Positions 10 to 35,049 of a stretch of 35,049 bases of DNA are shown one piece after another (position 1 is the first letter of the stretch; each line of letters opens with the position of its first letter). Origin of the DNA: an uncultured Muribaculaceae bacterium (lineage in GTDB: Bacteria; Bacillota_I; Bacilli_A; RF39; UBA660); the NCBI GenBank assembly GCA_964370615.1, contig CAYJJY010000001.1, positions 1 through 35,049 on the forward strand, in the 5' to 3' direction. The translations under genes were made by a program, and so were the position numbers. The notes below the pieces were generated by a model. The model searched no databases. It worked only from the letters and a program-made list of their open reading frames with translations, and had not been told where the DNA came from.

Positions 10-477
10 CTACCATTTGTAATGAGCAAATGCTTTATTAGCTTCTGCCATTCTGTGAGTGTCCTCACGTTTTTTAACTGCTGCTCCACTTCCGTTAGAT
101 GCATCAATTATTTCGTTTGCTAAGTTTTCAGCCATAGTATGACCACCTCTTAATCTTGAGTAGTGAACTAACCATCTTAAACCTAAAGCTTGACTTCTAT
201 CTGGTCTTACTTCGATTGGTACTTGGTAATTAGCTCCTCCTACACGACGAGACTTAACTTCTAATGCTGGTTTGATGTTAGCTAATGCTTTTTCTAAAAC
301 TTCCATTGGTTCAGAACCAGTTTTTTCTTTAATTACTTCTAAAGCATCATAAAGAATAGTTTGAGCTACACCTTTTTTACCATCAATCATAATTCTATTG
401 ATTAATTTAGTAACTAATTTTGAATTATATAATGGATCTGCTAATACATCTCTTTTAACTGCACGTCTTTTACGCAT
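10..477 (-). CDS. rpsG: 30S ribosomal protein S7
   Basis: 155-aa ORF with typical S7 sequence ([26 protein letters not shown] ... [15 protein letters not shown]). Lies directly downstream of S12, as in the str operon. Confidence 0.97.
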
Positions 478-5854: not shown

Positions 5855-6601
5855 TCAACACCCCCTACAAGTAATTATTTTTTCATTATCTAAATTTATT
5901 AATACACTTCCATCAAGGGCTGTTTGATAAATAACTGAGTTTTTTAAATTATCTAACACTTGTTGATTTGGATGCCCATAGCGGTTATTTTCACCAACTG
6001 ATATCAAACTTATTTGGGGGTTTATTTTTTCTATAAATGATAAGCTACTACTTGTTTTAGAACCATGATGCGCTACTTTCAAGTAATCTATTTGCGGTAA
6101 ATTATAATTTTTTAATAAATTTAGTTCTGCTTTTTCTCCAATATCTCCAGTAAATAAAAGATTTTTATTATTAACATTGATTAATAAGACTAAACTATCT
6201 TCATTCTCATCATTATATGCTTGATTTATAAATTTGAGTGTGTGATTATCTACTTTTAATTCTGCTTCACTTATGTTTATATAATCTGTTTTAGAATTTA
6301 TAATTTCTAATTCTTTATAGTTATTATTGTAACTATTTAAAATTATTTTATTTACTTTAAAATTATTTATTAAGTTTAGAGCTTCTCCTAAGTGATCTTG
6401 ATCGCCGTGACTTAAAATTAAATAATCTAATTTATTAATACCTCTACTTTTTAAATATGGAATTATTTTATTTAGTGCCATGTTATAACTTTCTTTATAT
6501 GCCCATCCTTCACTATAATTTAGGACACCTCCTGTATCGATTAGAATGTTGGTGTTGTTGAGTTCTAGTAAGAAACAATCACCTTGTCCTACATCTATCA
6601 T
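5855..6601 (-). CDS. comEC: ComEC C-terminal metallo-beta-lactamase domain fragment
   Basis: 248-aa ORF with MBL motifs DVGQGDC, SHGDQDHLGE and AHHGSKTSSS. It has no SD and no independent N-terminus. The frame stays open for 10 codons upstream of the ATG, where it meets a T7 homopolymer (plus-strand 6627-6633). Confidence 0.85.
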   Translation of the reverse strand: MIDVGQGDCFLLELNNTNILIDTGGVLNYSEGWAYKESYNMALNKIIPYLKSRGINKLDYLILSHGDQDHLGEALNLINNFKVNKIILNSYNNNYKELEIINSKTDYINISEAELKVDNHTLKFINQAYNDENEDSLVLLINVNNKNLLFTGDIGEKAELNLLKNYNLPQIDYLKVAHHGSKTSSSLSFIEKINPQISLISVGENNRYGHPNQQVLDNLKNSVIYQTALDGSVLINLDNEKIITCRGC

Positions 6602-6740
6602 TGTTAAATAATTGCCGGGTATTATATTTTTTTATATTTAGATGAATTATAAGAATTATCATTAAAACTATATATTTATTTTTTTTAAGACTTAATGTAA
6701 TTATTATAAAATATAAAATAATTATATAAATATTGTAAAA

Positions 6741-7841
6741 TTAAAAAGAAAAAATAAGTCCGTAATCATTAAAAAAAAGACTTAAGCTTTCTAATGTGGT
6801 AGTTAAAAAAGTAATATCAATAGGAATTATTAATGTTATTAGTAATAGTGGGAAAATAAAATATGCTATTAAGGGGACAAAAATTAAATTTAAAATGATA
6901 CTTAAAAAGTTTAAATAATAAAAATTCATCATTAAAATGGGGATGCTTACTACAAAACAAACAAATGATGTTTTCAATAGTTTTTTTAGGTAATTATTTT
7001 CATTGGGGGGGAATTTTAATAAATAGAAAGTTATAGTGAAACTAAAAATAAAACCGATATCGTATATTATAAAAGGATTATATAATAGTAGTATAAATGC
7101 TATTAGAAATAACAAATCTTGATTATTTATTTTATTTTTAAAAACAAAACAACCTACTGCTCTTATTATTGATGGTGTGAAATTAGCTAAGAATGCATAA
7201 AATAGCAAAAATATTGATATTACAGTGTGTTTTTTTATTACTTTTGATACTATATTTACTAATAATGTTACGTGCATACCTGATAGAGCTAGTAAATGAC
7301 TGATACCATTCAATTGAAAAGAGTTAGTTATTTCTTCACCTAAGTAACTTTTATCTCCTAAGATAAAGGTATTTAAATAGTTTTGGTTAGGGTTGTTATT
7401 AATATGGGTTTTCAAATTATTTTTTATTGTATATAGTAAATTATTATTTTCTTTTGTTTTTTTTATTTCTGTAGCATCTAAAATATAGTATATTTTTTTA
7501 CTTTTTAAATAATCTTTATAATTAAATTGATTAAATAAAGTATTTTCGGAAGGATAACTTAAATTGCCTGTTACTTTTAAATAGTCACCTAATTGAAATG
7601 TTTCAAAATGTTTTTTTTCTGCTTCTGAATCTAGATAGTAATTTATTATTATTTCTTTTGAGACTATCACTACTTTATCTCCAGTTATTTCGATATTTTT
7701 TATAATTAATTCAGTATCAATTGAACCAATGTTATAGTTTGTTTTATAAATATCTTTACTAATTACTATAAAACAGTAAATAATTATACTAAATAGTAAT
7801 ATTATTTTTAATCTTTTGGAAAGTTGCATCTCCGATTCCAC
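6741..7841 (-). CDS. comEC: ComEC N-terminal (OB-fold/DUF4131-like plus Competence membrane domain) fragment
   Basis: 366-aa polytopic membrane ORF containing the ComEC/Rec2 core (LNGISHLLALSGMHVTLL). Follows comEA. Alternative ATG start at 7829. Ends at an in-frame TAA (6741-6743), after which the same frame stays open. Confidence 0.85.
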   Translation of the reverse strand: MESEMQLSKRLKIILLFSIIIYCFIVISKDIYKTNYNIGSIDTELIIKNIEITGDKVVIVSKEIIINYYLDSEAEKKHFETFQLGDYLKVTGNLSYPSENTLFNQFNYKDYLKSKKIYYILDATEIKKTKENNNLLYTIKNNLKTHINNNPNQNYLNTFILGDKSYLGEEITNSFQLNGISHLLALSGMHVTLLVNIVSKVIKKHTVISIFLLFYAFLANFTPSIIRAVGCFVFKNKINNQDLLFLIAFILLLYNPFIIYDIGFIFSFTITFYLLKFPPNENNYLKKLLKTSFVCFVVSIPILMMNFYYLNFLSIILNLIFVPLIAYFIFPLLLITLIIPIDITFLTTTLESLSLFFNDYGLIFSF

Positions 7842-8445
7842 TTACTTCCATTATTTCTTCAATTGTTTTGAAATTCCCATTTTCTTCTCTGTATGTTATG
7901 ATGGCTTTTGCTTTTGATTCTCCTATTCCACTTAATGTCATTAGTTGTTCTAGTGTTGCTTTATTAAGTGAGATTTTACTATTGTCTTCAGTTTCTGTTA
8001 TTGGTTCTTCTATACAAGCAATATTTTCTGGTAACTCAGGGCAGTAACATTCTGTTTCAATTATTTTAACACTTGTTTCTCCTGATGTCATCACTTCTAT
8101 TTCTTGTTTTGAGTAGATAATTATAACATCTTCATCATGTAATATTTTGCTTAAGTTAATTACTGTTGTATCTGATTTTTCTGTGAATCCACCACTTTCA
8201 TTTATAGCATCAATTACCCGACTATTTGCTTTCAATTCATATATTCCAGGATTAACTACCTCTCCTTTGATATCAATTTTTATGGTTTGAATTTCGTTTT
8301 CTAGTGTGGGTGTTGGGGTTGTAGTCATAATGGGTTCATTTTTTGGAATAATTAATATTAAAACAATTATAAGTGGGATTAGTAATAAGCAATACTTGTA
8401 CTTTAATAATTCGTATTTTTTTATATAATATTTTATATGATTCAT
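7789..8445 (-). CDS. comEA: competence protein ComEA (SLBB plus helix-hairpin-helix DNA-binding)
   Basis: N-terminal TM anchor, SLBB-like GEVVNPGIYELKANSRVIDAINESGG, and a C-terminal HhH pair (LNKATLEQLMTLSGIGESKAKAIITYREENGNFKTIEEIMEVSGIG). SD TAGGAGGTGA. Confidence 0.92.
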   Translation of the reverse strand: MNHIKYYIKKYELLKYKYCLLLIPLIIVLILIIPKNEPIMTTTPTPTLENEIQTIKIDIKGEVVNPGIYELKANSRVIDAINESGGFTEKSDTTVINLSKILHDEDVIIIYSKQEIEVMTSGETSVKIIETECYCPELPENIACIEEPITETEDNSKISLNKATLEQLMTLSGIGESKAKAIITYREENGNFKTIEEIMEVSGIGDATFQKIKNNITI

Positions 8446-9582: not shown

Positions 9583-10041
9583 TTAGATATTAACTACTTC
9601 GATTTCATCAACTAATTCTAGTTGTGTTTCTAAAATATTTTTTAGTTTTCTTTTCAATAAAATCATATTTCTTTTTAAATTTTCTGTTTGTTTTTCAATT
9701 GTTTCTGATTCTAATAAAGCTTCATTTACGATTCGATTGGCATTTTTTTTAGCTTCGTTTATTAATAACTCACGTTCTTGAAAAGTTTGTAGTTTCATTT
9801 GTTCAGAAGTTTTTTCAATCATCATTAATGATTTTTTTAATGTTTCTTCTGTTTGTTCATAACGATTAATTTTTTCACTTAAACTTTTATTAATTAATTC
9901 TAATTGTCTAAGTTTTTTTAATTCTTCGTCTTTTTTATTACTCTCTTTTATGATTATTTCTACTTTACTAATGATATTATCAATAAAAGCATTTACTTCG
10001 TCAGGATCATATCCTCTTAGAGTTTTATTAAATTTTTGCAT
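9583..10041 (-). CDS. divIVA: DivIVA-domain cell-division protein
   Basis: N-terminus FNKTLRGYDPDEVNAFIDNI (DivIVA lipid-binding domain pattern) followed by coiled-coil sequence. Lies downstream of sepF. Confidence 0.85.
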   Translation of the reverse strand: MQKFNKTLRGYDPDEVNAFIDNIISKVEIIIKESNKKDEELKKLRQLELINKSLSEKINRYEQTEETLKKSLMMIEKTSEQMKLQTFQERELLINEAKKNANRIVNEALLESETIEKQTENLKRNMILLKRKLKNILETQLELVDEIEVVNI

Positions 10042-10061
10042 AATATCACCTCTAATTTATT

Positions 10062-10463
10062 CTACCACTCGATGTTTAAATCTTTATTATCGTGAATATC
10101 TTTTCCTTCTGTTTCATCTGTTATTTTTCCATTTACTTTAACATTATTTGGTGTACATAAAAATATACCACCACCTACTTTTTGGATGCTTCCGTCAATG
10201 GCGTAAATAGTTCCACTTAGAAAATCTATTATTCTTTTTGCCTGATCTGCTGTAACTCTTTTTAAGTTAACTACAACTGTATTTCTCTCTCTTAATTGAT
10301 TAGCTATTTGTTGTGTTTCTGAGAAAGCTCTTGGCTCTAGTAACACTAATTTTGTATTTCCATCTTCTTGAAGAATTTCTGATTTTTTTACTGCGTAATA
10401 TTGTTCACTAGTATTTTCATCAATTAGCTCTTCATCTGCTGTAAACCATTTTTTTAAATTCAT
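10062..10463 (-). CDS. sepF: cell division protein SepF
   Basis: C-terminal SepF core RAFSETQQIANQLRERNTVVVNLKRV...AKRIIDFLSGTIYAIDGSIQKVGGGIFLCTP. The ATG at 10463 (MNLKKWF) is preceded by TAAGGAGGAT; the longer track ORF start lacks an SD. Confidence 0.9.
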   Translation of the reverse strand: MNLKKWFTADEELIDENTSEQYYAVKKSEILQEDGNTKLVLLEPRAFSETQQIANQLRERNTVVVNLKRVTADQAKRIIDFLSGTIYAIDGSIQKVGGGIFLCTPNNVKVNGKITDETEGKDIHDNKDLNIEW

Positions 10464-17848: not shown

Positions 17849-18070
17849 CTATTTTAGTGTTAAAAAAATGGTTTGAATCATCTCAAAGGTATCTAAAGCT
17901 TTACTTAATTTGTCACTGGTTTTTAGTTTATAATTTTTTTTCATTTCTTCTTCAAAACTTATAAATAAATTAGGGTCACGATTTAAATATTTATACCAGG
18001 TAGAGTTTTCTCTTAAATATTTTAAATAATTGGGATTTTTTTTTAATTTATATTGTAGTTCTAAGGTCAT
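17849..18070 (-). CDS. YlbE-like protein
   Basis: 73 aa; ...NPNYLKYLRENSTWYKYLNRDPNLFISFEEEMKKNYK fits the YlbE-like pattern. Start overlaps the ylbD-like stop. Confidence 0.65.
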   Translation of the reverse strand: MTLELQYKLKKNPNYLKYLRENSTWYKYLNRDPNLFISFEEEMKKNYKLKTSDKLSKALDTFEMIQTIFLTLK

Positions 18071-18432
18071 TAATCATCTAAATGTTTATATAGTGGTCGT
18101 GGTCGATATCCGGTTTCTTTGACTGGTTCTTCTTTACTTGAAAACCCTTCTACTACACCTAATATTTTTTGAATATTATTAACTCCGGATTGGACGTTGT
18201 CTAAATTTAAATTTTTAACCCAATTTAAAATGTCATTTACCCCTAATATTGTAGATGTTGCAGCTACTTCTTTTATTGGTGGTGTTAAATAATCTTTCCA
18301 AGTCGTTTCTTCTTCCCCGTATAAATCATACATTTCATAAAATTGTTGCCATGTTTTTTCATTGTTTTTAACATACTGTAACAATTTTGGATTTTTTTTA
18401 ACAAACTCTTTAAATAATTCTAACTTACCCAT
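18070..18432 (-). CDS. YlbD-like (putative coat protein) family protein
   Basis: FKEFVKKNPKLLQYVKNNEKTWQQFYEMYDLYGEEETTWKDY fits the YlbD-like pattern. The ATG at 18432 is preceded by TAGGTGAGAAGC; the track start at 18441 is a GTG inside the SD. Confidence 0.65.
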   Translation of the reverse strand: MGKLELFKEFVKKNPKLLQYVKNNEKTWQQFYEMYDLYGEEETTWKDYLTPPIKEVAATSTILGVNDILNWVKNLNLDNVQSGVNNIQKILGVVEGFSSKEEPVKETGYRPRPLYKHLDD

Positions 18433-18485
18433 GCTTCTCACCTATTTAATATTATGTAATTAATTTTAAAAAGTGAATATTTTAA

Positions 18486-20339
18486 TTATGGTTTTACTAT
18501 GAAATTAATATTGGCTGCTTTTTCACTTGAATTATTGAAGTTTAAAGCGTCTTGGGTTGTTTTAGCATAGGCTGTTGTGACTTTAGTTGTTTGGGTAAAC
18601 ATTTTTGAGAAATCATTTACTTTACTGGTATCAAAACTACTTAAATCGAGTGTTTCTAATCTTGTTGCATAATTAAACATTCTAGTCATCGTTGTGACGT
18701 TACTGGTATCGAATGATGTTAAAATGATATTTTTAGCTGCAGAACCTGAAAACATTACGGCCATACTTGTTACTTTACTAGTATTAAAATTACTTAAATC
18801 TAAATTTTCTAAACTGTACATGTACCCAAACATTTGAGTCATCGTTGTGACGTTGCTGGTATCAAAAGAGCTCACATCTATAGTTTTTATTTTTGACACA
18901 TTAGTAAACATATAATTCATGTTAGTTACATTTTTTGTGTTGAAGGATGTTAAATTTATATCTGTAAGACTAATTGTACTGGCAAACATATTAAGCATAC
19001 TTGTTACTTTACTGGTATTAAAATTACTTAAATCTAAAGTTGTTATAGATTGAACATTATTAAACATATTGGTCATATTAATAACATTTGATGTGTCTAT
19101 AGATGATAAATCCAGACTTAATAATTTACTGTTATTTTGAAATAAATATGACATATCGGTAACATTACTTGTATCTAAAGCATTGTTAAAGTTTATATTT
19201 TCTAAAGCGATAAATTTACAAAATAATGATTTGTATTGATTATTATAAGTTGTACAATACCCTCCTAATTTTTCATGAGCAATAATTTTTCCGTTTGATT
19301 CTATATTAAGAATTTGTCTTCCTTCTACTTCTTCAATGTAACCAACAACAACTTCATTATTATCTTCTGATAAATCCCATTTAATTGTAGCTGTTTCATA
19401 TTTACCACTTTTACTTGATAAAAAATTTATTTCTTTTATTGTATCACGATAAGTTCCAATTTTATTTTGAAATTCTTCACCACTTATCATTAAATTAGGT
19501 TCGGTAATTGTGATATTGATAGATTTTGTTACTTTTAAATTGTTGTTACCATTTGCTGTACATGTCACTTGATTTAATCCATCTTTTAATTCTATGGTAT
19601 TATTAAAATCACACAATAATTCACCACCACTTATTCCGAAAGAATATGTGAAAAATTCTTTTATTTCGTTGTTTGTATTTTTTAATAGTGTTATATTCAG
19701 TTCTTTTGCTTCTAAAACCGGTGTGGTTTTATCTAGTTTAAATTCTTGGCAAACAACTTCTGATTGTTTTCCGTAATTTTGCGCTACAGCACAAACGGTA
19801 TGGACACCTTCTTCTACTATTAAAATTTCACCTGTTTTATTGGGTATACATTCAGTGTTACTAACACAATATTGGTATGAATTTCCATTCGTAATTACAT
19901 TTACTTTTATATCTTCATTGTACCAATTAAAAGTATTACTAATTTCGATTGTTACTTTATAACTGTCATTATCATCATCCGGGTTACATTCTTCTTCATA
20001 CTTGAAATCATATTGGGAAATTTCGTTTTTCCAAGCATAAACTATACAACCTTCTAAAGTTTCATTGGTTAGAGGATTTTTGGGTATTTCATTAATGAAA
20101 CCATCATCTATTAATTCTTCAAATTCTATTGTCTTATAATTATTATTTTCATAACCTAAATTATTTTTTGTTGAAAAAAGGGTTGCTTGTTTGATTAATA
20201 TATTGATTTGTTCTTCATAAGCTACCTGCTTTGATTCATTTATAATACTGTTAACAATTGGGGTTGCTATAGCTAAAATTATACCTAAAATAACTAATAC
20301 TCCAAGTAATTCTACTAATGTGAATGCTTTTTTCATCAT
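18486..20339 (-). CDS. type IV prepilin-like N-terminus fused to Ig-like segments and about 9 DUF285 (BspA-type LRR) repeats
   Basis: MMKKA/FTLVELLGVLVILGIILAIATPIV is a class III (prepilin) signal with Glu at +5. The C-terminal half has ~25-aa repeats (LDLSNFNTSKVTSMLNMF, LTSFDTSNVTTMTRMF ...) typical of DUF285. Confidence 0.85.
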   Translation of the reverse strand: MMKKAFTLVELLGVLVILGIILAIATPIVNSIINESKQVAYEEQINILIKQATLFSTKNNLGYENNNYKTIEFEELIDDGFINEIPKNPLTNETLEGCIVYAWKNEISQYDFKYEEECNPDDDNDSYKVTIEISNTFNWYNEDIKVNVITNGNSYQYCVSNTECIPNKTGEILIVEEGVHTVCAVAQNYGKQSEVVCQEFKLDKTTPVLEAKELNITLLKNTNNEIKEFFTYSFGISGGELLCDFNNTIELKDGLNQVTCTANGNNNLKVTKSINITITEPNLMISGEEFQNKIGTYRDTIKEINFLSSKSGKYETATIKWDLSEDNNEVVVGYIEEVEGRQILNIESNGKIIAHEKLGGYCTTYNNQYKSLFCKFIALENINFNNALDTSNVTDMSYLFQNNSKLLSLDLSSIDTSNVINMTNMFNNVQSITTLDLSNFNTSKVTSMLNMFASTISLTDINLTSFNTKNVTNMNYMFTNVSKIKTIDVSSFDTSNVTTMTQMFGYMYSLENLDLSNFNTSKVTSMAVMFSGSAAKNIILTSFDTSNVTTMTRMFNYATRLETLDLSSFDTSKVNDFSKMFTQTTKVTTAYAKTTQDALNFNNSSEKAANINFIVKP

Positions 20340-20358: not shown

Positions 20359-20387
20359 ATTGTATCATTTTATAAACTTATTAACAA
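20359..20387 (-). promoter_or_regulatory. sigma-A type promoter for the prepilin-DUF285 gene
   Basis: Minus strand TTGTTA, 17 nt, TACAAT with a TG extension. Lies between the rpoE terminator and the gene. Confidence 0.55.
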
Positions 20388-20407: not shown

Positions 20408-20433
20408 TAAAAAAAAGACATATTTTATGTCTT
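20408..20433 (-). terminator. intrinsic terminator after rpoE
   Basis: Minus strand AAGACAT-AAAAT-ATGTCTT followed by T8. Overlaps the TAA stop. Confidence 0.75.
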
Positions 20434-26768: not shown

Positions 26769-27821
26769 TTAGTTTGGAAGTTCATAATACTTATCTGCTG
26801 TTTCTATTGTACAATTCAAATCAGTATCACTATGAAATTTTATAGTTTTACAATAGAAATTAGAAACATCACAAGCGATATCATGAATACCATAAAATTG
26901 TTCATTAAAGAGCCATGAGAATGAATCATTAAATGGGCTTATAAGTTGATTATTATCTACATTTAAACAGCTATCTTTGATATAGATATCCATATTTTTC
27001 AATTCCATAACAACTGGAGCAAAAACCGAATCTCCTAAATTGCTATTAGTAGATAATGTTATCTTTTCTAGATTAGTACCTTCAAAAGCTGCATCTGCTA
27101 TTGTTGTTACACTATCAGGCATTTCGATTTCTGATAGTAAAGTATATGAAAAAGCATACAATCCAATTTCTTTAATGTTATTATTAATCTTAACACTTTC
27201 TATTACAAAACCATCTTCTTCATATCTTGCAAAAGCATATGAATTATTTGATGTAATATGATTTTCAATTTCTCCTACAGTTGATAAACCTATTTTATTA
27301 ACTTCAATACCACCAATAGTACATGGTATTACTGGACTTGTATCTGTTCCAATATAAGCTAAAATAGTATTGGTGTTTTTATCAAAAATAAAGTCACTAT
27401 CGGGATTAGCTTCATTTTTCCAACTGTCATAATTATCGCAACTATAAGCATAATCAAACTCTATTTCACAATTTTCAGAATATTCAAATTGATATTGATT
27501 AATATTATTTTGCCAAGAATACAGAATACATCCTTCCAAAGTTTCTCCTGTTATTGGGTTTTCAGGGATTGTTTGAATTAAACCTGAATTAATCAAGTCC
27601 TGATATTGAATTGATTTTTTGGTACTACTTGTACCTAATGAATTTTGTACTGAATATTTTAGAGCTTGATCTAGTAAAAGATCTATTTGCGAGTCGTAAG
27701 CTGATTGTTTTGAATTATTTATGATACTATTAGTTACTGGGACAATAATTGCAATTATAACACCTAAGATAACTATAACTGCTAGTAACTCTACTAATGT
27801 AAAGGCTTTTTTTACATTCAT
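26769..27821 (-). CDS. type IV prepilin-like N-terminus fused to a BspA/LRR_5-type leucine-rich repeat domain
   Basis: MNVKKA/FTLVELLAVIVILGVIIAIIVPV prepilin signal. The first ~120 aa are paralogous to the 18486-20339 product. The C-terminus has LRR_5-like repeats (IKEIGLYAFSYTLLSEIEMPDSVTTIADAAFEGTNLEKITL). ATG at 27821. Confidence 0.8.
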   Translation of the reverse strand: MNVKKAFTLVELLAVIVILGVIIAIIVPVTNSIINNSKQSAYDSQIDLLLDQALKYSVQNSLGTSSTKKSIQYQDLINSGLIQTIPENPITGETLEGCILYSWQNNINQYQFEYSENCEIEFDYAYSCDNYDSWKNEANPDSDFIFDKNTNTILAYIGTDTSPVIPCTIGGIEVNKIGLSTVGEIENHITSNNSYAFARYEEDGFVIESVKINNNIKEIGLYAFSYTLLSEIEMPDSVTTIADAAFEGTNLEKITLSTNSNLGDSVFAPVVMELKNMDIYIKDSCLNVDNNQLISPFNDSFSWLFNEQFYGIHDIACDVSNFYCKTIKFHSDTDLNCTIETADKYYELPN

Positions 27822-27846
27822 GATAACCACTTCTCTATCTTACAAT

Positions 27847-31184: not shown

Positions 31185-32822
31185 TTAATTGAAAGTCTTG
31201 TCTTCTTCTTTTTTTATTGTGAAGTTTTCAGTTAAATTCAAATCAATATTAAATTCCATAAATACAATATTGTTTATTTCCTCATTGGTAGCACCAAATT
31301 CTTTTAGTTTTTCAACCATTTTTAAAATTTCCTTAGTATTGTCATCCAAATTTGATTTTGTCATTTGAATTGTAGAAGTTGTTTTGTTTATGTGAGTGTT
31401 GATGTTATTTTGGTTTTGTCGATTGTCATTTGATTTAGCAGGTGAATTATTTTCATCATATTTTTTCATTTCTTGAATCACTTTGTTATCATAACAAAAT
31501 TTATACTTACATATATTTTCCTTTTCAGCATTAATACTTATCTTTTCTTTTACTGTGTTAATAAAATCTTTATCTACTCTCATTATATTCTCACTCATTT
31601 TTGCTAATATTGTTTTGAAATCTTTAGCTTTAACGTCTATTACTACATTTTCACTAATCTGAGATGAAGATATAATTTCTTTCGAATTAATCGAACTTTC
31701 TAATCTACTTATTAATTTAGGTTTAAAGAAAGAGATTATTCTATGTTTGAAATTATCAGAGTTAATATATGGTTTTAATTTAATTTCTTCAAAAATTCCT
31801 TTGGATAATTTTTCTTTATTTAGAATTTTTCCCTCATATGGTCTGAGATTTGAATTAAAACGTTCTACAACACTTTCTGCTAAAACCATAGCTAAGTATT
31901 CATCAAGAGAAATATTGTTTCCATTATATGAAACTTTCATATTTTGATTACTACGAATCCAATTTATAATTTCACCAGTTATTGTTTCATCAATTATTTT
32001 GCTTCTAACCTCGTTATAAGAACGTTTTTTTCCTTTAGAATCAGGTGACGGTTCAGAACCATAACCAATCCATCCATCTATTTTACCAACTAATAGAGGC
32101 GGTTGTTTTAACCCTAAACTTATATTTGAATTTTTCATTTTAATTTTTTGTAAAATATCAATATAATCTTGAAGATGTTTATTATCACTATAAATAACTA
32201 TAGTATCACATCTATTACCAACTATATCATATTTAAAATAATATGGAATATTTAACTTTTCACATTCTTTAATGAATAAATCGCATATATCTATTGTTAT
32301 GTTTGAATCCGAGTTTATATATAAACGATTTTTTATAGCAGGAAGTGCTGTCGTTCCTATCTTATTTTTTTCCGACATTACATGTTGCCATGATGAATCT
32401 CTCCCATCCTTATCCCATCTATGCTTTTCCATTGCTATTTTTAATTTTGAATCAGAATAATTACTATCCATGATGTCATCAGCTTCTTTTTTTGTCTTTA
32501 CATCTGGAACTTTTTTTAAAAACTCTCTTAATACTATAAAATCATCATTAATTTTCCCATAATTGCGCAAACTTATTCCTTGTTCTCTTGTCATATTAAC
32601 TATATGATTTTTCCATGAATTAAACCTTTCAATATAAAATTTTTCATTATTTTTGGAAAGAATTCTAATCACCTTGCCGTCGATATTACTTTTAACAAGT
32701 CTAGTATAAAAATCTTTTTGTGTAGATTTAGATGAATAAGTTTCGAAATAAATTTCCAACAATTTTTTTACTGTTTCTTCATTCAAAGGATTTTCAATAT
32801 TATCATATATATCTTTTAGCAT
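31185..32822 (-). CDS. hypothetical 545-aa protein; central region weakly resembles a HopA1/OspF/LanKC-lyase-type domain
   Basis: Residues ~160-290: KNRLYINSD...IPYYFKYDIVGNRCDTIVIYS...GWIGYGSEPSP...KRSYNEVRSKIIDETI resemble the K-x-Y-x-N / FK / R-x-D-x-V-x-Y / G-x-x-x-E-P...S-F-G..R pattern of that family. Low-complexity N/Q/T linker near the C-terminus. Translationally coupled to the upstream ORF. Confidence 0.6.
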   Translation of the reverse strand: MLKDIYDNIENPLNEETVKKLLEIYFETYSSKSTQKDFYTRLVKSNIDGKVIRILSKNNEKFYIERFNSWKNHIVNMTREQGISLRNYGKINDDFIVLREFLKKVPDVKTKKEADDIMDSNYSDSKLKIAMEKHRWDKDGRDSSWQHVMSEKNKIGTTALPAIKNRLYINSDSNITIDICDLFIKECEKLNIPYYFKYDIVGNRCDTIVIYSDNKHLQDYIDILQKIKMKNSNISLGLKQPPLLVGKIDGWIGYGSEPSPDSKGKKRSYNEVRSKIIDETITGEIINWIRSNQNMKVSYNGNNISLDEYLAMVLAESVVERFNSNLRPYEGKILNKEKLSKGIFEEIKLKPYINSDNFKHRIISFFKPKLISRLESSINSKEIISSSQISENVVIDVKAKDFKTILAKMSENIMRVDKDFINTVKEKISINAEKENICKYKFCYDNKVIQEMKKYDENNSPAKSNDNRQNQNNINTHINKTTSTIQMTKSNLDDNTKEILKMVEKLKEFGATNEEINNIVFMEFNIDLNLTENFTIKKEEDKTFN

Positions 32823-32823
32823 T

Positions 32824-33297
32824 TTATTCTTCTCCTTTAACTAATGGTATTTTTTGTGCTAATTGTATTATATCATATAATCCATTTAGCTTTTTGATCA
32901 ACTCTAATTGAAATTCATAGCTACCTACTATTTTAAATTTATGATTATACTCTATCTCCCAATATTCTTTTCCTACTTCTTCGATTAAATAATTATTCCC
33001 CAAATCTCTTAAGTCGTACATTGCAAGCATTTCTATTATCTCATCTGGAATTATGAACGAATCTACATCAATCACTATTTGTTTATTTTGTTCTAAGCTG
33101 TACATAGTATGTGTTAGTAATACTCTCAAATCATCCTCTTTAAAAATAATTTCAAATGAACTACAATAATGATGTGATGCATCATTTTCATTTGTATCCA
33201 AATAAAAATGTGTATATTTCAGATGTTCTAATGTAAATTTATTTCTCTTAATTATTGGTTTTATATTTTTATCAAATTCAAAATTTTCATATTCCAT
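32824..33297 (-). CDS. hypothetical 157-aa acidic protein
   Basis: ORF with SD AAGAAAGGTAGGA. Its TAA stop is 1 nt from the ATG of the 545-aa gene. No family recognised. Confidence 0.6.
   Translation of the reverse strand: MEYENFEFDKNIKPIIKRNKFTLEHLKYTHFYLDTNENDASHHYCSSFEIIFKEDDLRVLLTHTMYSLEQNKQIVIDVDSFIIPDEIIEMLAMYDLRDLGNNYLIEEVGKEYWEIEYNHKFKIVGSYEFQLELIKKLNGLYDIIQLAQKIPLVKGEE

Positions 33298-34516: not shown

Positions 34517-35049
<533 letters not shown>

Follow-up and report, generated by a model that had tools for sequence, protein, structure and literature searches.

A probable modular type IV pilin carrying a DUF285/PARCEL repeat array in an uncultured bacterium

Gut metagenomes very commonly encode arrays of DUF285/PARCEL repeats and of BspA-type leucine-rich repeats (LRRs), which are putative adhesins and whose means of attachment is often unclear. 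Modular pilins, in turn, explain how many functions are gained by simple type IV filaments, and to our knowledge only two have been characterized so far, the vWA and lectin pilins of Streptococcus sanguinis. The gene considered here joins a prepilin-like N-terminus to a DUF285 array, and the question it raises is what kind of protein this is and how its cargo would be displayed. The reading that we favor, with somewhat better than even confidence, is that its product is a modular type IV pilin bearing a DUF285 cargo, for which the role of an adhesive minor pilin is proposed. The core of this reading, a modular pilin-adhesin of the kind represented by S. sanguinis PilB and PilC, had been put forward in a preliminary description of the DNA, and it was upheld by HMM scores, by a structure model, and by cleavage-site residues that are conserved throughout the family. 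The features of the locus are collected in Table 1, where coordinates refer to the window, i.e., the whole stretch of 35,049 nucleotides that was analyzed.

Table 1. Features of the modular pilin gene and its surroundings in the window.
Feature	Coordinates	Strand	Basis or description
Modular pilin gene	18486..20339	(-)	ORF list; 617 aa from first ATG
Class III leader M(M)KKA	20325..20339	(-)	Prepilin peptidase predicted to cut between Ala and Phe
Pilin module, precursor residues 6-120	19980..20324	(-)	alpha1 (mature Phe1, Glu5, Gly14, Pro22), small beta-sheet, conserved Cys pair (Cys98, Cys118)
Two tandem Ig-like beta-sandwich domains, residues ~128-281	19497..19958	(-)	Model pLDDT 85-94
Cap/linker domain before repeats, residues ~282-375	19215..19496	(-)	Model: helix 287-294, strands 301-348
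DUF285/PARCEL array + C-terminal cap	18489..19214	(-)	8 canonical 25-26-aa units, residues ~385-590
24-nt repeat pair	18687-18710 + 18840-18863		23/24 identical, 153 nt (51 codons) apart
Candidate sigma-70 promoter, TTGTTA-17 nt-(TG)n-TACAAT	20359..20387	(-)	Consensus scan, 9/12 + TG extension
Terminator-like hairpin, 8-bp stem + U-run	20408..20433	(-)	Directly after stop codon of rpoE-like gene
Paralogous modular pilin, 353 aa, carrier module + BspA-type LRR_5	26769..27830	(-)	N_methyl 25.1 bits, LRR_5 49.3 bits

Read from its first ATG, the product begins MMKKAFTLVELLGVLVILG. An AGGAGG Shine-Dalgarno sequence lies 5 nt 5′ of a second ATG (20336), and because of this spacing, and because orthologues also have the leader MKKA, the second ATG is probably the start, giving a protein of 616 aa with that leader. 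The database copy of the protein (P0001) is likewise 616 aa long. Mollicute-like features prompted consideration of genetic code 4, which was rejected since the housekeeping ORFs are intact in table 11, with TGA as a stop; the internal stop of comEC is TAA.

The identity of the protein can be approached through profile models of its two ends. At the N-terminus, Pfam N_methyl (PF07963) scored 22.4 bits against a cut-off of 21.2 over residues 3–25, and TIGR02532 (NCBIfam) scored 21.3 bits against 16.3, so that the class III prepilin N-terminus proposed earlier holds. The mature N-terminus with Phe1 and Glu5, the ~20 hydrophobic residues of alpha1N, and Pro22 are all present (FTLVELLGVLVILGIILAIATP). 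At the other end, DUF285 (PF03382) scored 177.2 bits against a cut-off of 25, while the PARCEL repeat model TIGR02167 scored 172.2 bits against 30, in 8 stretches. That all four models exceed their curated cut-offs argues for a modular pilin, as does the absence of a C-terminal anchor from a protein that ends ...NINFIVKP.

Structure prediction adds a second line of support. AlphaFold modeled the full protein confidently (pLDDT 88.4): an N-terminal helix of 50 residues is followed by a small sheet, by two beta-sandwiches, and by a repeat solenoid, the pilin module itself consisting of a helix at 8–58 and strands at 69–72, 98–104, and 109–115. In addition, the family profile falls into register, from mature residue 1, with many solved pilins, including PAK pilin (1oqw), S. 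sanguinis PilE1 (8pfb), and GspG (5wda). Both the confident model and this alignment favor the modular-pilin reading, whereas a Foldseek search of the PDB with the pilin module by itself had no significant match (the top one was S. sanguinis PilE, 8pfb, with E = 0.75), a result that speaks against it.

The Foldseek result, along with the slim margin by which N_methyl clears its cut-off, would also fit a protein that is no pilin at all and whose N-terminus, a common Sec signal or a membrane-spanning anchor, resembles the N_methyl motif by chance. Such an explanation is barely credible given that two independent models exceed their cut-offs and that the profile is in register with so many mature pilin N-termini. 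Moreover, a six-frame scan of the window found the prepilin motif only twice, each time at the N-terminus of one of two paralogous proteins, and 93 relatives show no variation in the motif, in Glu5, or in Pro22.

Those relatives belong to a family of carrier pilins with ~3,500 cluster representatives, long for the most part. Across 93 aligned members (22–47% identity), Phe+1, Thr+2, Glu+5, Pro+22, one Gly, and two Cys are invariant. In 88 members, position +1 was Phe in every one and position −1 was Gly in 69 and Ala in 19, with no other residue. The target has Ala at −1 rather than the commoner Gly, which is a further point against the modular-pilin reading. The conserved cleavage-site and assembly residues argue for real processing by a prepilin peptidase, as this pattern is the signature of that enzyme's specificity and of pilin assembly, and a plain membrane anchor would not need it.

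If the protein is a pilin, the next question is of which kind. Like ComGC–ComGG and GspG, it has a class III signal and an N-terminal helix; unlike them, it scores far under the equivalog cut-offs, shows no likeness past the helix, and differs in size and cargo. The GspG model (TIGR01710) reached 26.4 against a cut-off of 88.85, with the match confined to residues 5–56, and the scores for ComGC (23.7 against 75), ComGF (17.9 against 80), and ComGE (16.9 against 49) also came from the helix. The resemblance to a GspG/ComGC-type loop seen in the preliminary description was not confirmed, both HMMs matching the N-terminal helix alone (residues 3–61). The window does carry comEA and comEC, whose presence lends some support to a pilin, and together with the weak Com matches they could suggest that the protein is a minor subunit in the pseudopilus of the competence (Com) system and serves DNA uptake with ComEA and ComEC. 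We consider this highly improbable: apart from the low scores, the gene lies outside any comG operon, its cargo is a DUF285/LRR-like adhesin module without a DNA-binding signature, and comEC itself appears disrupted.

The remainder of the protein is made up of a spacer and a repeat array. Its beta-rich, Cys-containing middle, described as such from the outset, was modeled as two beta-sandwiches (~128–204 and 205–281) followed by a cap domain. No Pfam Ig family matched the middle segment; Foldseek with the full model returned tandem Ig, Rib, and cadherin structures at a probability of ~1.0 but with E ~1e-3 and low TM-scores. The Ig-like pair, which is probably a stalk or spacer, is duplicated in the paralogues P0002 and P0004, and the cap/linker segment is conserved among DUF285 homologues.

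When the repeats were aligned in register, 8 canonical units of 25–26 aa and one further unit, a degenerate one, were seen, in agreement with an initial count of about 9. Each repeat was modeled with one short strand (pLDDT > 90), and a profile comparison weakly matched the LRRs found in TLR4, LINGO, and Skp2; the array, an LRR-like solenoid, is presumed to serve as ligand-binding cargo. The accompanying claim of near-identity in DNA sequence among several units was overstated. The 24-nt pair is the sole near-identical DNA repeat in the array (a pattern search gave 2 matches, with 0 expected), the 75–78-nt units are otherwise 60–78% identical, and Tandem Repeats Finder detected no DNA array in the pilin gene. 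The scope for variation in repeat number is weaker than had been suggested, and the orthologue P0003, being equal in length to the target, would predict little of it.

Another kind of evidence comes from the wider family. The paralogue in the window, 6.4 kb from the target gene, matches the target by BLASTP with E = 2e-42, mostly over residues 1–120, and the two pilin modules are 62% identical. Family cargo includes LRR_5, Ig-like, DUF6273, DUF285, and dockerin modules. Stand-alone pilins of 115–135 aa also occur in metagenome-assembled genomes (MAGs) of uncultured gut Bacilli/Mycoplasmatota; they span 94% of the carrier module at 35–47% identity, share the target's conserved Cys pair, and are annotated as [quoted passage not shown] or “type II secretion system protein.” Unlike the target they carry no cargo, which makes them candidates for a major subunit, and like it they are solitary genes. 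The existence of such free-standing pilins and the variety of cargo borne by the same module both argue for the modular-pilin reading. In a profile search of genome contigs from GTDB representatives, the best match to a 5-sequence pilin alignment was 45% identical, which places the species outside those representatives.

The setting of the gene deserves attention, since it lies directly upstream of ylbD (coat), ylbE, yqfC, and yqfD on the same strand. The order rpoE, pilin, ylbD, ylbE, yabP/yqfC, yqfD is kept in the sister genome GCA_964369245.1, where the syntenic orthologue P0003 is 67% identical to the target, a correspondence that supports the modular-pilin reading. The hairpin behind the rpoE-like gene folds as RNA with a centroid of −6.2 and an MFE of −8.8 kcal/mol (z = −3.2 against shuffles). 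As the candidate promoter falls between this hairpin and the Shine-Dalgarno sequence, the proposal that the gene has a promoter of its own is plausible by position; the particular site is less convincing, because it is a 9/12 match and such matches are no commoner in the window than in shuffled sequence. The description of the gene as monocistronic was not confirmed, for a search between it and the downstream ylbD found no terminator.

This arrangement could mean that the gene belongs to a sporulation transcription unit and that its product decorates the spore or the sporangium. The missing terminator and the conserved order from rpoE to yqfD would agree with such a role, as would a small pilin gene that adjoins yqfD in a related complete genome (L017). 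The small pilin, however, resembles the target in the N-terminal helix only, and positional orthology between the two was rejected for that reason. The paralogues of the target sit in unrelated genomic contexts and the candidate promoter is sigma-70-like, so a spore surface protein is very unlikely; we know of no spore coat in which type IV pilins have been described.

There is also the matter of assembly machinery. As was already recognized, the window contains no pilus assembly genes, PilB/ComGA, PilC/ComGB, and prepilin peptidase (PilD) all being absent from its 35 kb. The loci of the pilin family examined in related Bacilli MAGs had no pilus operon either, and the pilin genes there are solitary among housekeeping genes. 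Both observations weigh against the modular-pilin reading. A pilus ATPase was also sought with a Walker-A regular expression over 80+ loci. The sole true GspE/PilB-type ATPase in the Bacilli loci so searched (L025) is encoded 4.6 kb from a pilin homologue on the same contig of one related MAG. Close homologues of this ATPase (~71% identity) occur in many other metagenome assemblies, including MAGs labeled Tenericutes/Mycoplasmatota, and in gut MAGs they too are encoded by solitary genes; those traced to their source all came from MAGs other than the sister genome GCA_964369245.1. The L025 ATPase and its homologues count as indirect evidence in favor of the modular-pilin reading. Other Walker-A matches in Bacilli loci were mostly ABC transporters or UvrA, and clusters at loci of Elusimicrobia, Planctomycetes, and Patescibacteria are irrelevant to this lineage.

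With the genes so dispersed, it is conceivable that the protein never polymerizes and that its prepilin N-terminus, cleaved or not, acts only as a membrane anchor in the manner of a pseudopilin. The Ig stalk would then extend the DUF285 array across the wall, with the pilin module as the clade's general display anchor. Solitary genes and the lack of machinery in the window are what one would expect in that case. Size points the same way, as 108 of the 141 closest carrier-module proteins exceed 160 aa and the longest reaches 2,201 aa, a repertoire hard to fit into one filament. Set against this are the invariant Glu5, Pro22, and +1 Phe and the Gly or Ala at −1, which suit peptidase processing and the packing of helices in a filament, as well as stand-alone members that could be major subunits and a PilB-type ATPase that shares a contig with a pilin homologue and has relatives in many gut assemblies. 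On balance, we regard an unpolymerized anchor as unlikely, if still worth serious consideration, and a modular pilin as the better account of the gene.

As for novelty, the architecture is known. Modular pilins combine the IPR012902 motif with a further domain that is not peculiar to type IV pili, their prototypes being S. sanguinis PilB (pilin + vWA) and PilC (pilin + lectin) (Raynaud et al. 2021, PNAS, PMC8179133), and the target, with N_methyl and DUF285, has exactly this combination. Dataset S1 of that paper contains 22 IPR012902-IPR005046 (DUF285) proteins, some with a PF08428 Rib/Ig spacer, and also counts IPR012902-IPR026906 (LRR_5), a listing that further supports the modular-pilin reading. 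A DUF285 array on a prepilin signal was initially thought to be an unusual anchoring or display solution; with 22 catalogued examples, the same pairing in 18 of the 120 best homologues, many kinds of cargo, and a second gene with this carrier in the window, that view is not supported. N_methyl-DUF285 is an architecture already catalogued, and the result for this gene is mostly confirmatory.

The target is like the modular pilins of Raynaud et al. in having a prepilin motif and small pilin module followed by an unrelated functional module, a monoderm host, and a predicted role as an adhesive minor pilin. It departs from PilB and PilC of S. sanguinis in that a two-Ig stalk bears a DUF285/PARCEL solenoid in place of a vWA or lectin module, and in that its gene is solitary and outside a pil operon. 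A second comparison is with DUF285/PARCEL surface proteins (Roske et al. 2010, PMC2996958), which NCBI names “BspA family leucine-rich repeat surface protein” and of which the lipoproteins LppQ and LppC of Mycoplasma mycoides are examples. The target shares their 25–26-aa repeat, their divergent rather than identical units, and a predicted surface location, and unlike the PARCEL lipoproteins of Mollicutes it is attached via a pilin module. The survey by Roske et al. mentions assorted membrane-targeting sequences and not a prepilin signal.

From these elements a mechanism can be proposed. The short, basic class III leader MKKA would guide insertion into the membrane, and a prepilin peptidase would cut ahead of Phe+1. 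The hydrophobic alpha1 (Glu5, Gly14, Pro22) and a small head, probably stabilized by a disulfide between the conserved Cys98 and Cys118, would form a minimal pilin “handle” that docks into a type IV filament whose machinery would be encoded elsewhere in the genome. The two Ig-like domains would serve as a stalk, and the distal DUF285/PARCEL solenoid as ligand-binding cargo. Given a bulky cargo of about 55 kDa and the analogy with S. sanguinis PilB and PilC, the protein would most likely be a low-abundance minor pilin at the filament tip, acting as an adhesin.

Finally, a broader idea may be raised tentatively, as one that we hold possible and short of likely. In small-genome, spore-forming, uncultured gut bacteria of the Bacilli/Mycoplasmatota-like kind, one minimal pilin module may have become the general handle by which much of the adhesin repertoire is exported and displayed, bearing DUF285, BspA-LRR, Ig-like, DUF6273, dockerin, and pretoxin-HINT modules. 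Genes for the pilins and for a single PilB-type ATPase may there be dispersed singly among housekeeping genes, with no operon. In that event a type IV filament or a membrane pool of pilins would replace sortase or lipoprotein anchoring. Should a sizeable fraction of DUF285/PARCEL and BspA-type arrays ride on such a handle, proteins now called “BspA family surface protein” or left unnamed could be better annotated, type IV filaments would be a main display route in uncultured low-GC gut bacteria, and the proteins would provide candidates for adhesion studies.

Domain searches, structure modelling and residue conservation bear out the core of the preliminary description, in which a prepilin N-terminus, Ig-like segments and a DUF285 array make up a modular pilin-adhesin. 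The Pfam N_methyl family covers residues 3–25 of the target at 22.4 bits (cut-off 21.2) and the NCBIfam prepilin-type cleavage/methylation domain TIGR02532 scores 21.3 (cut-off 16.3), while Pfam DUF285 reaches 177 bits (cut-off 25) and the NCBIfam PARCEL repeat TIGR02167 reaches 172 bits in 8 stretches. The C-terminal third holds, in register, one degenerate unit and then 8 canonical units of 25–26 aa (xLDLSxFxTSxVTxMxxMF). A GspG/ComGC-type loop had also been proposed, but matches to the GspG, ComGC, ComGF and ComGE models fall far under their cut-offs and are restricted to the N-terminal helix. A role in the Com pseudopilus is a minor alternative; the window encodes an intact comEA and a comEC in two halves (5855–7841), with a frameshift and an in-frame TAA (near 6743) between them. 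Loss of function, a truly divided gene or a fault in the assembly could each explain the interruption, the first making comEC a pseudogene.

Features of the target gene, its predicted product, the window and related loci
Feature	Position	Strand	Description
Target pilin ORF	18486–20339	minus	617 aa, N-terminus MMKKAFTLVELLGVLVILGIILAIATP
Terminator-like hairpin	20408–20433	minus	AT-rich 8-bp stem and U-run directly after rpoE-like stop codon
Candidate promoter	20387–20359	minus	TTGTTA-17-TGnTACAAT, 9/12 consensus match
Second modular pilin	26769–27830	minus	353 aa, carrier pilin module and BspA-type LRR_5 (49 bits)
comEC, N-terminal competence domain	6741–7841	minus	split ORF
comEC, metallo-beta-lactamase domain	5855–6601	minus	split ORF
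comEA	7789–8445		intact
Continuous helix	target residues 8–58		AlphaFold2 model
Small sheet, strands	target residues 69–72, 98–104, 109–115		AlphaFold2 model
Two beta-sandwich domains	target residues about 128–204 and 205–281		AlphaFold2 model
Mixed cap domain	target residues 282–375		AlphaFold2 model
Solenoid	reaching the C-terminus		AlphaFold2 model, one short strand per DUF285 repeat
ATPase homologue	L088 10001–11344		related locus
ATPase homologue	L089 10001–11341		related locus
ATPase homologue	L090 3065–4423		related locus

The full-length AlphaFold2 model, built on an alignment of 12 homologues, is confident (mean pLDDT 88.4). With the whole model as query, Foldseek found nothing in the PDB beyond weak similarity to tandem Ig, Rib and cadherin domains (E about 1e-3, with low TM-scores), a result that fits an Ig-like stalk. 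For the pilin module alone (pLDDT 85.9) no Foldseek match was significant, the best being to S. sanguinis PilE in the 8pfb filament. The family sequence profile aligns with solved pilins (PAK pilin 1oqw, S. sanguinis PilE1 8pfb, Geobacter pilin and GspG 5wda), and in every case the first aligned position is precisely residue 1 of the mature chain in the structure; its C-terminal part gives weak LRR matches (TLR4, LINGO-1, Skp2). Numbered from the predicted cleavage site, the mature target carries Phe1, Glu5, Gly14 and Pro22, the classical landmarks of the type IV pilin alpha1 helix.

The motif residues F, T, L, E and L are invariant in the 12 full-length homologues (30–67% identity). Phe+1, Thr+2, Glu+5, Pro+22, one Gly and two Cys (98, 118) are likewise invariant in 93 proteins whose similarity is limited to the carrier module and which are 22–47% identical to the first sequence of the set. 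Among the 88 with a parsable motif, position −1 is occupied by Gly in 69 and by Ala in the other 19, +1 is always Phe, and the leader has a median of 4 residues. Such conservation across homologues argues that the target's prepilin signal is functional, and the pattern is that of a prepilin-peptidase substrate combined with filament helix-packing residues. A chance prepilin motif on a Sec signal is a minor alternative; a plain signal anchor would not show such constraint on the −1/+1, Glu5 and Pro22 residues. A six-frame scan of the whole window found only two prepilin motifs, and in both cases a long ORF opens with the motif.

An AGGAGG box lies 2 nt 5′ of the first ATG and 5 nt 5′ of the second, and the database copy of the target and all orthologues begin with MKKA or MKKG; from this spacing and these starts, the true product is probably 616 aa with a leader of 4 residues. 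The hairpin preceding the gene (centroid −6.2, MFE −8.8 kcal/mol, z = −3.2 against shuffles) is likely the intrinsic terminator of the upstream rpoE-like gene, and was missed by a consensus scan because its stem has fewer than 3 G-C pairs. The target had been called monocistronic with its own promoter. The promoter is plausible, since it is placed between this hairpin and the Shine-Dalgarno sequence; 9/12-type matches in this region are equally frequent in shuffled sequence. Monocistronic transcription is unproven, as no terminator-like structure was found in the 44-nt gap before ylbD downstream.

Several repeat units had been thought near-identical at the DNA level, but the 75–78-nt units are 60–78% identical and Tandem Repeats Finder reports no array in the gene. 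A single 24-nt pair (18687 and 18840) is 23/24 identical, its spacing of 153 nt being in frame and equal to two repeats. The orthologue matches the target in length, and the paralogues differ in repeat number and also by duplication of the Ig pair. Repeat number changes over evolutionary time, but no sign of a slippage-prone contingency locus was seen.

The second modular pilin of the window shares about 62% identity with the target over residues 1–120. An exhaustive profile search with the 124-position carrier module returned 3,493 cluster representatives at E ≤ 1e-10; the module sits at the extreme N-terminus in all 150 best matches, and of 141 non-query matches 33 are under 160 aa and 108 are longer, up to 2,201 aa. 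Stand-alone pilins of 115–135 aa cover 94% of the module at 35–47% identity. A Pfam scan of 93 long carrier-module proteins identified LRR_5 (18), Bact_surface_Ig-like (14), DUF6273 (7), the ALK/LTK glycine-rich domain (5), DUF285 (4), Dockerin (4), Flg_new (3) and Pretoxin HINT (2) as cargo, and ten long pilins of related genomes give a similar picture. Because one carrier module bears such varied cargo and also stands alone, the target is one of numerous proteins that differ in cargo but have a pilin handle in common. An uncultured Bacilli MAG (L006 4774–12592) has three tandem modular pilins of about 800–880 aa with Bact_surface_Ig-like domains, and many other loci encode prepilin-led proteins of 280–1,470 aa with DUF6273, LRR_5, Fib_succ_major or Flg_new cargo.

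Of the 120 top-ranking homologues of the full-length protein, 18 start with a prepilin motif, and these fall into several distinct sequence groups. The term modular pilin was defined by Raynaud et al. 2021 (PMC8179133), who screened InterPro for IPR012902 combined with any other domain. In their Dataset S1 the combination IPR012902-IPR005046 (DUF285) accounts for 22 proteins in nine architecture rows, a PF08428 Rib (Ig-like) spacer being present in three of them, and IPR012902-IPR026906 (LRR_5) is within their 15 commonest architectures. Pilins go unmentioned in the 2010 PARCEL survey, and a full-text literature search found no paper on DUF285 pilins as a specific topic. The architecture is therefore not new: it is catalogued, yet uncharacterised.

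The window (G+C about 25%, standard code 11) also carries rpsG, rpsL, rpoD, dnaG, glyS, recO, era, ybeY, argS, RNase J and rubrerythrin genes. The product of 31185–32822 (minus), 545 aa long and of unknown function, matches the HopA1 effector family marginally (23.9 bits, cut-off 22.7); a 157-aa ORF without a family match (32824–33297) adjoins its gene. For an ORF at 34517–35005 (minus), similarity to tRNA-guanine transglycosylase is confined to the C-terminal half of that enzyme (profile positions 195–355 of 357), and the gene probably extends past the window end. The sporulation genes yqfD, yqfC/yabP, ylbE and ylbD are present, and a sporulation-linked role for the target is a further minor alternative. 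In the closest genome, GCA_964369245.1, the orthologue (P0003) is 67% identical and of equal length, within the common order argS, rpoE-like, pilin, ylbD, ylbE, yabP; the paralogues P0004 and P0006 lie elsewhere amid housekeeping genes. A complete circular 1.2-Mb genome of a relative (L017; GlyRS 61% identical) has, as in the window, the order yqfD, vanZ-like, era, recO, glyS, with a 138-aa pilin just upstream of yqfD (9977–10414), resembling the target only in the N-terminal helix, and a 506-aa LRR_5 modular pilin after glyS (17969–20175). Among GTDB representatives the carrier module reaches 45% identity at best; the matches come from MAGs of uncultured gut bacteria labelled 'Bacilli', 'Mycoplasmatota/Tenericutes', 'Acholeplasma sp. 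CAG:878' and 'Candidatus Coprosoma', the group to which L017 also belongs.

Assembly machinery is where the pilin reading is weakest: genes for T2SSE, T2SSF and peptidase A24 are all absent from the 35-kb window. Indirect evidence is offered by one related Bacillales MAG contig (L025 2–1918), on which a genuine GspE/PilB ATPase, complete with Walker A box, His box and tetracysteine motif, is encoded at a distance of 4.6 kb from a homologous pilin gene. Many gut metagenome assemblies, Tenericutes/Mycoplasmatota-labelled MAGs among them, contain homologues of this ATPase (446–454 aa, about 71% identical), and in all three contexts inspected the gene is solitary amid housekeeping genes (tRNA synthetases, ribosomal proteins), with no pilus operon. 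Pilin genes of related gut MAGs are likewise solitary or in small tandem sets amid housekeeping genes, with a pilus operon in none examined. In these bacteria, type 4 filament genes may commonly be dispersed rather than grouped in operons, so a machinery-free window says little. The main alternative, though the less probable reading, is that the pilin handle is a membrane anchor only and the protein is never polymerised; the clade's many large cargo-bearing pilins and scattered pilin genes speak for it. We lean instead towards a modular type IV pilin that would serve as a minor subunit, probably at the filament tip, and present a DUF285 LRR-like adhesin on an Ig stalk in the manner of S. sanguinis PilB and PilC. 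As such, the target is a further member of an already catalogued protein kind, and the more interesting lead lies at the level of the clade, where small-genome gut bacteria with scattered filament genes may carry a large and diverse adhesin repertoire on a single pilin handle.
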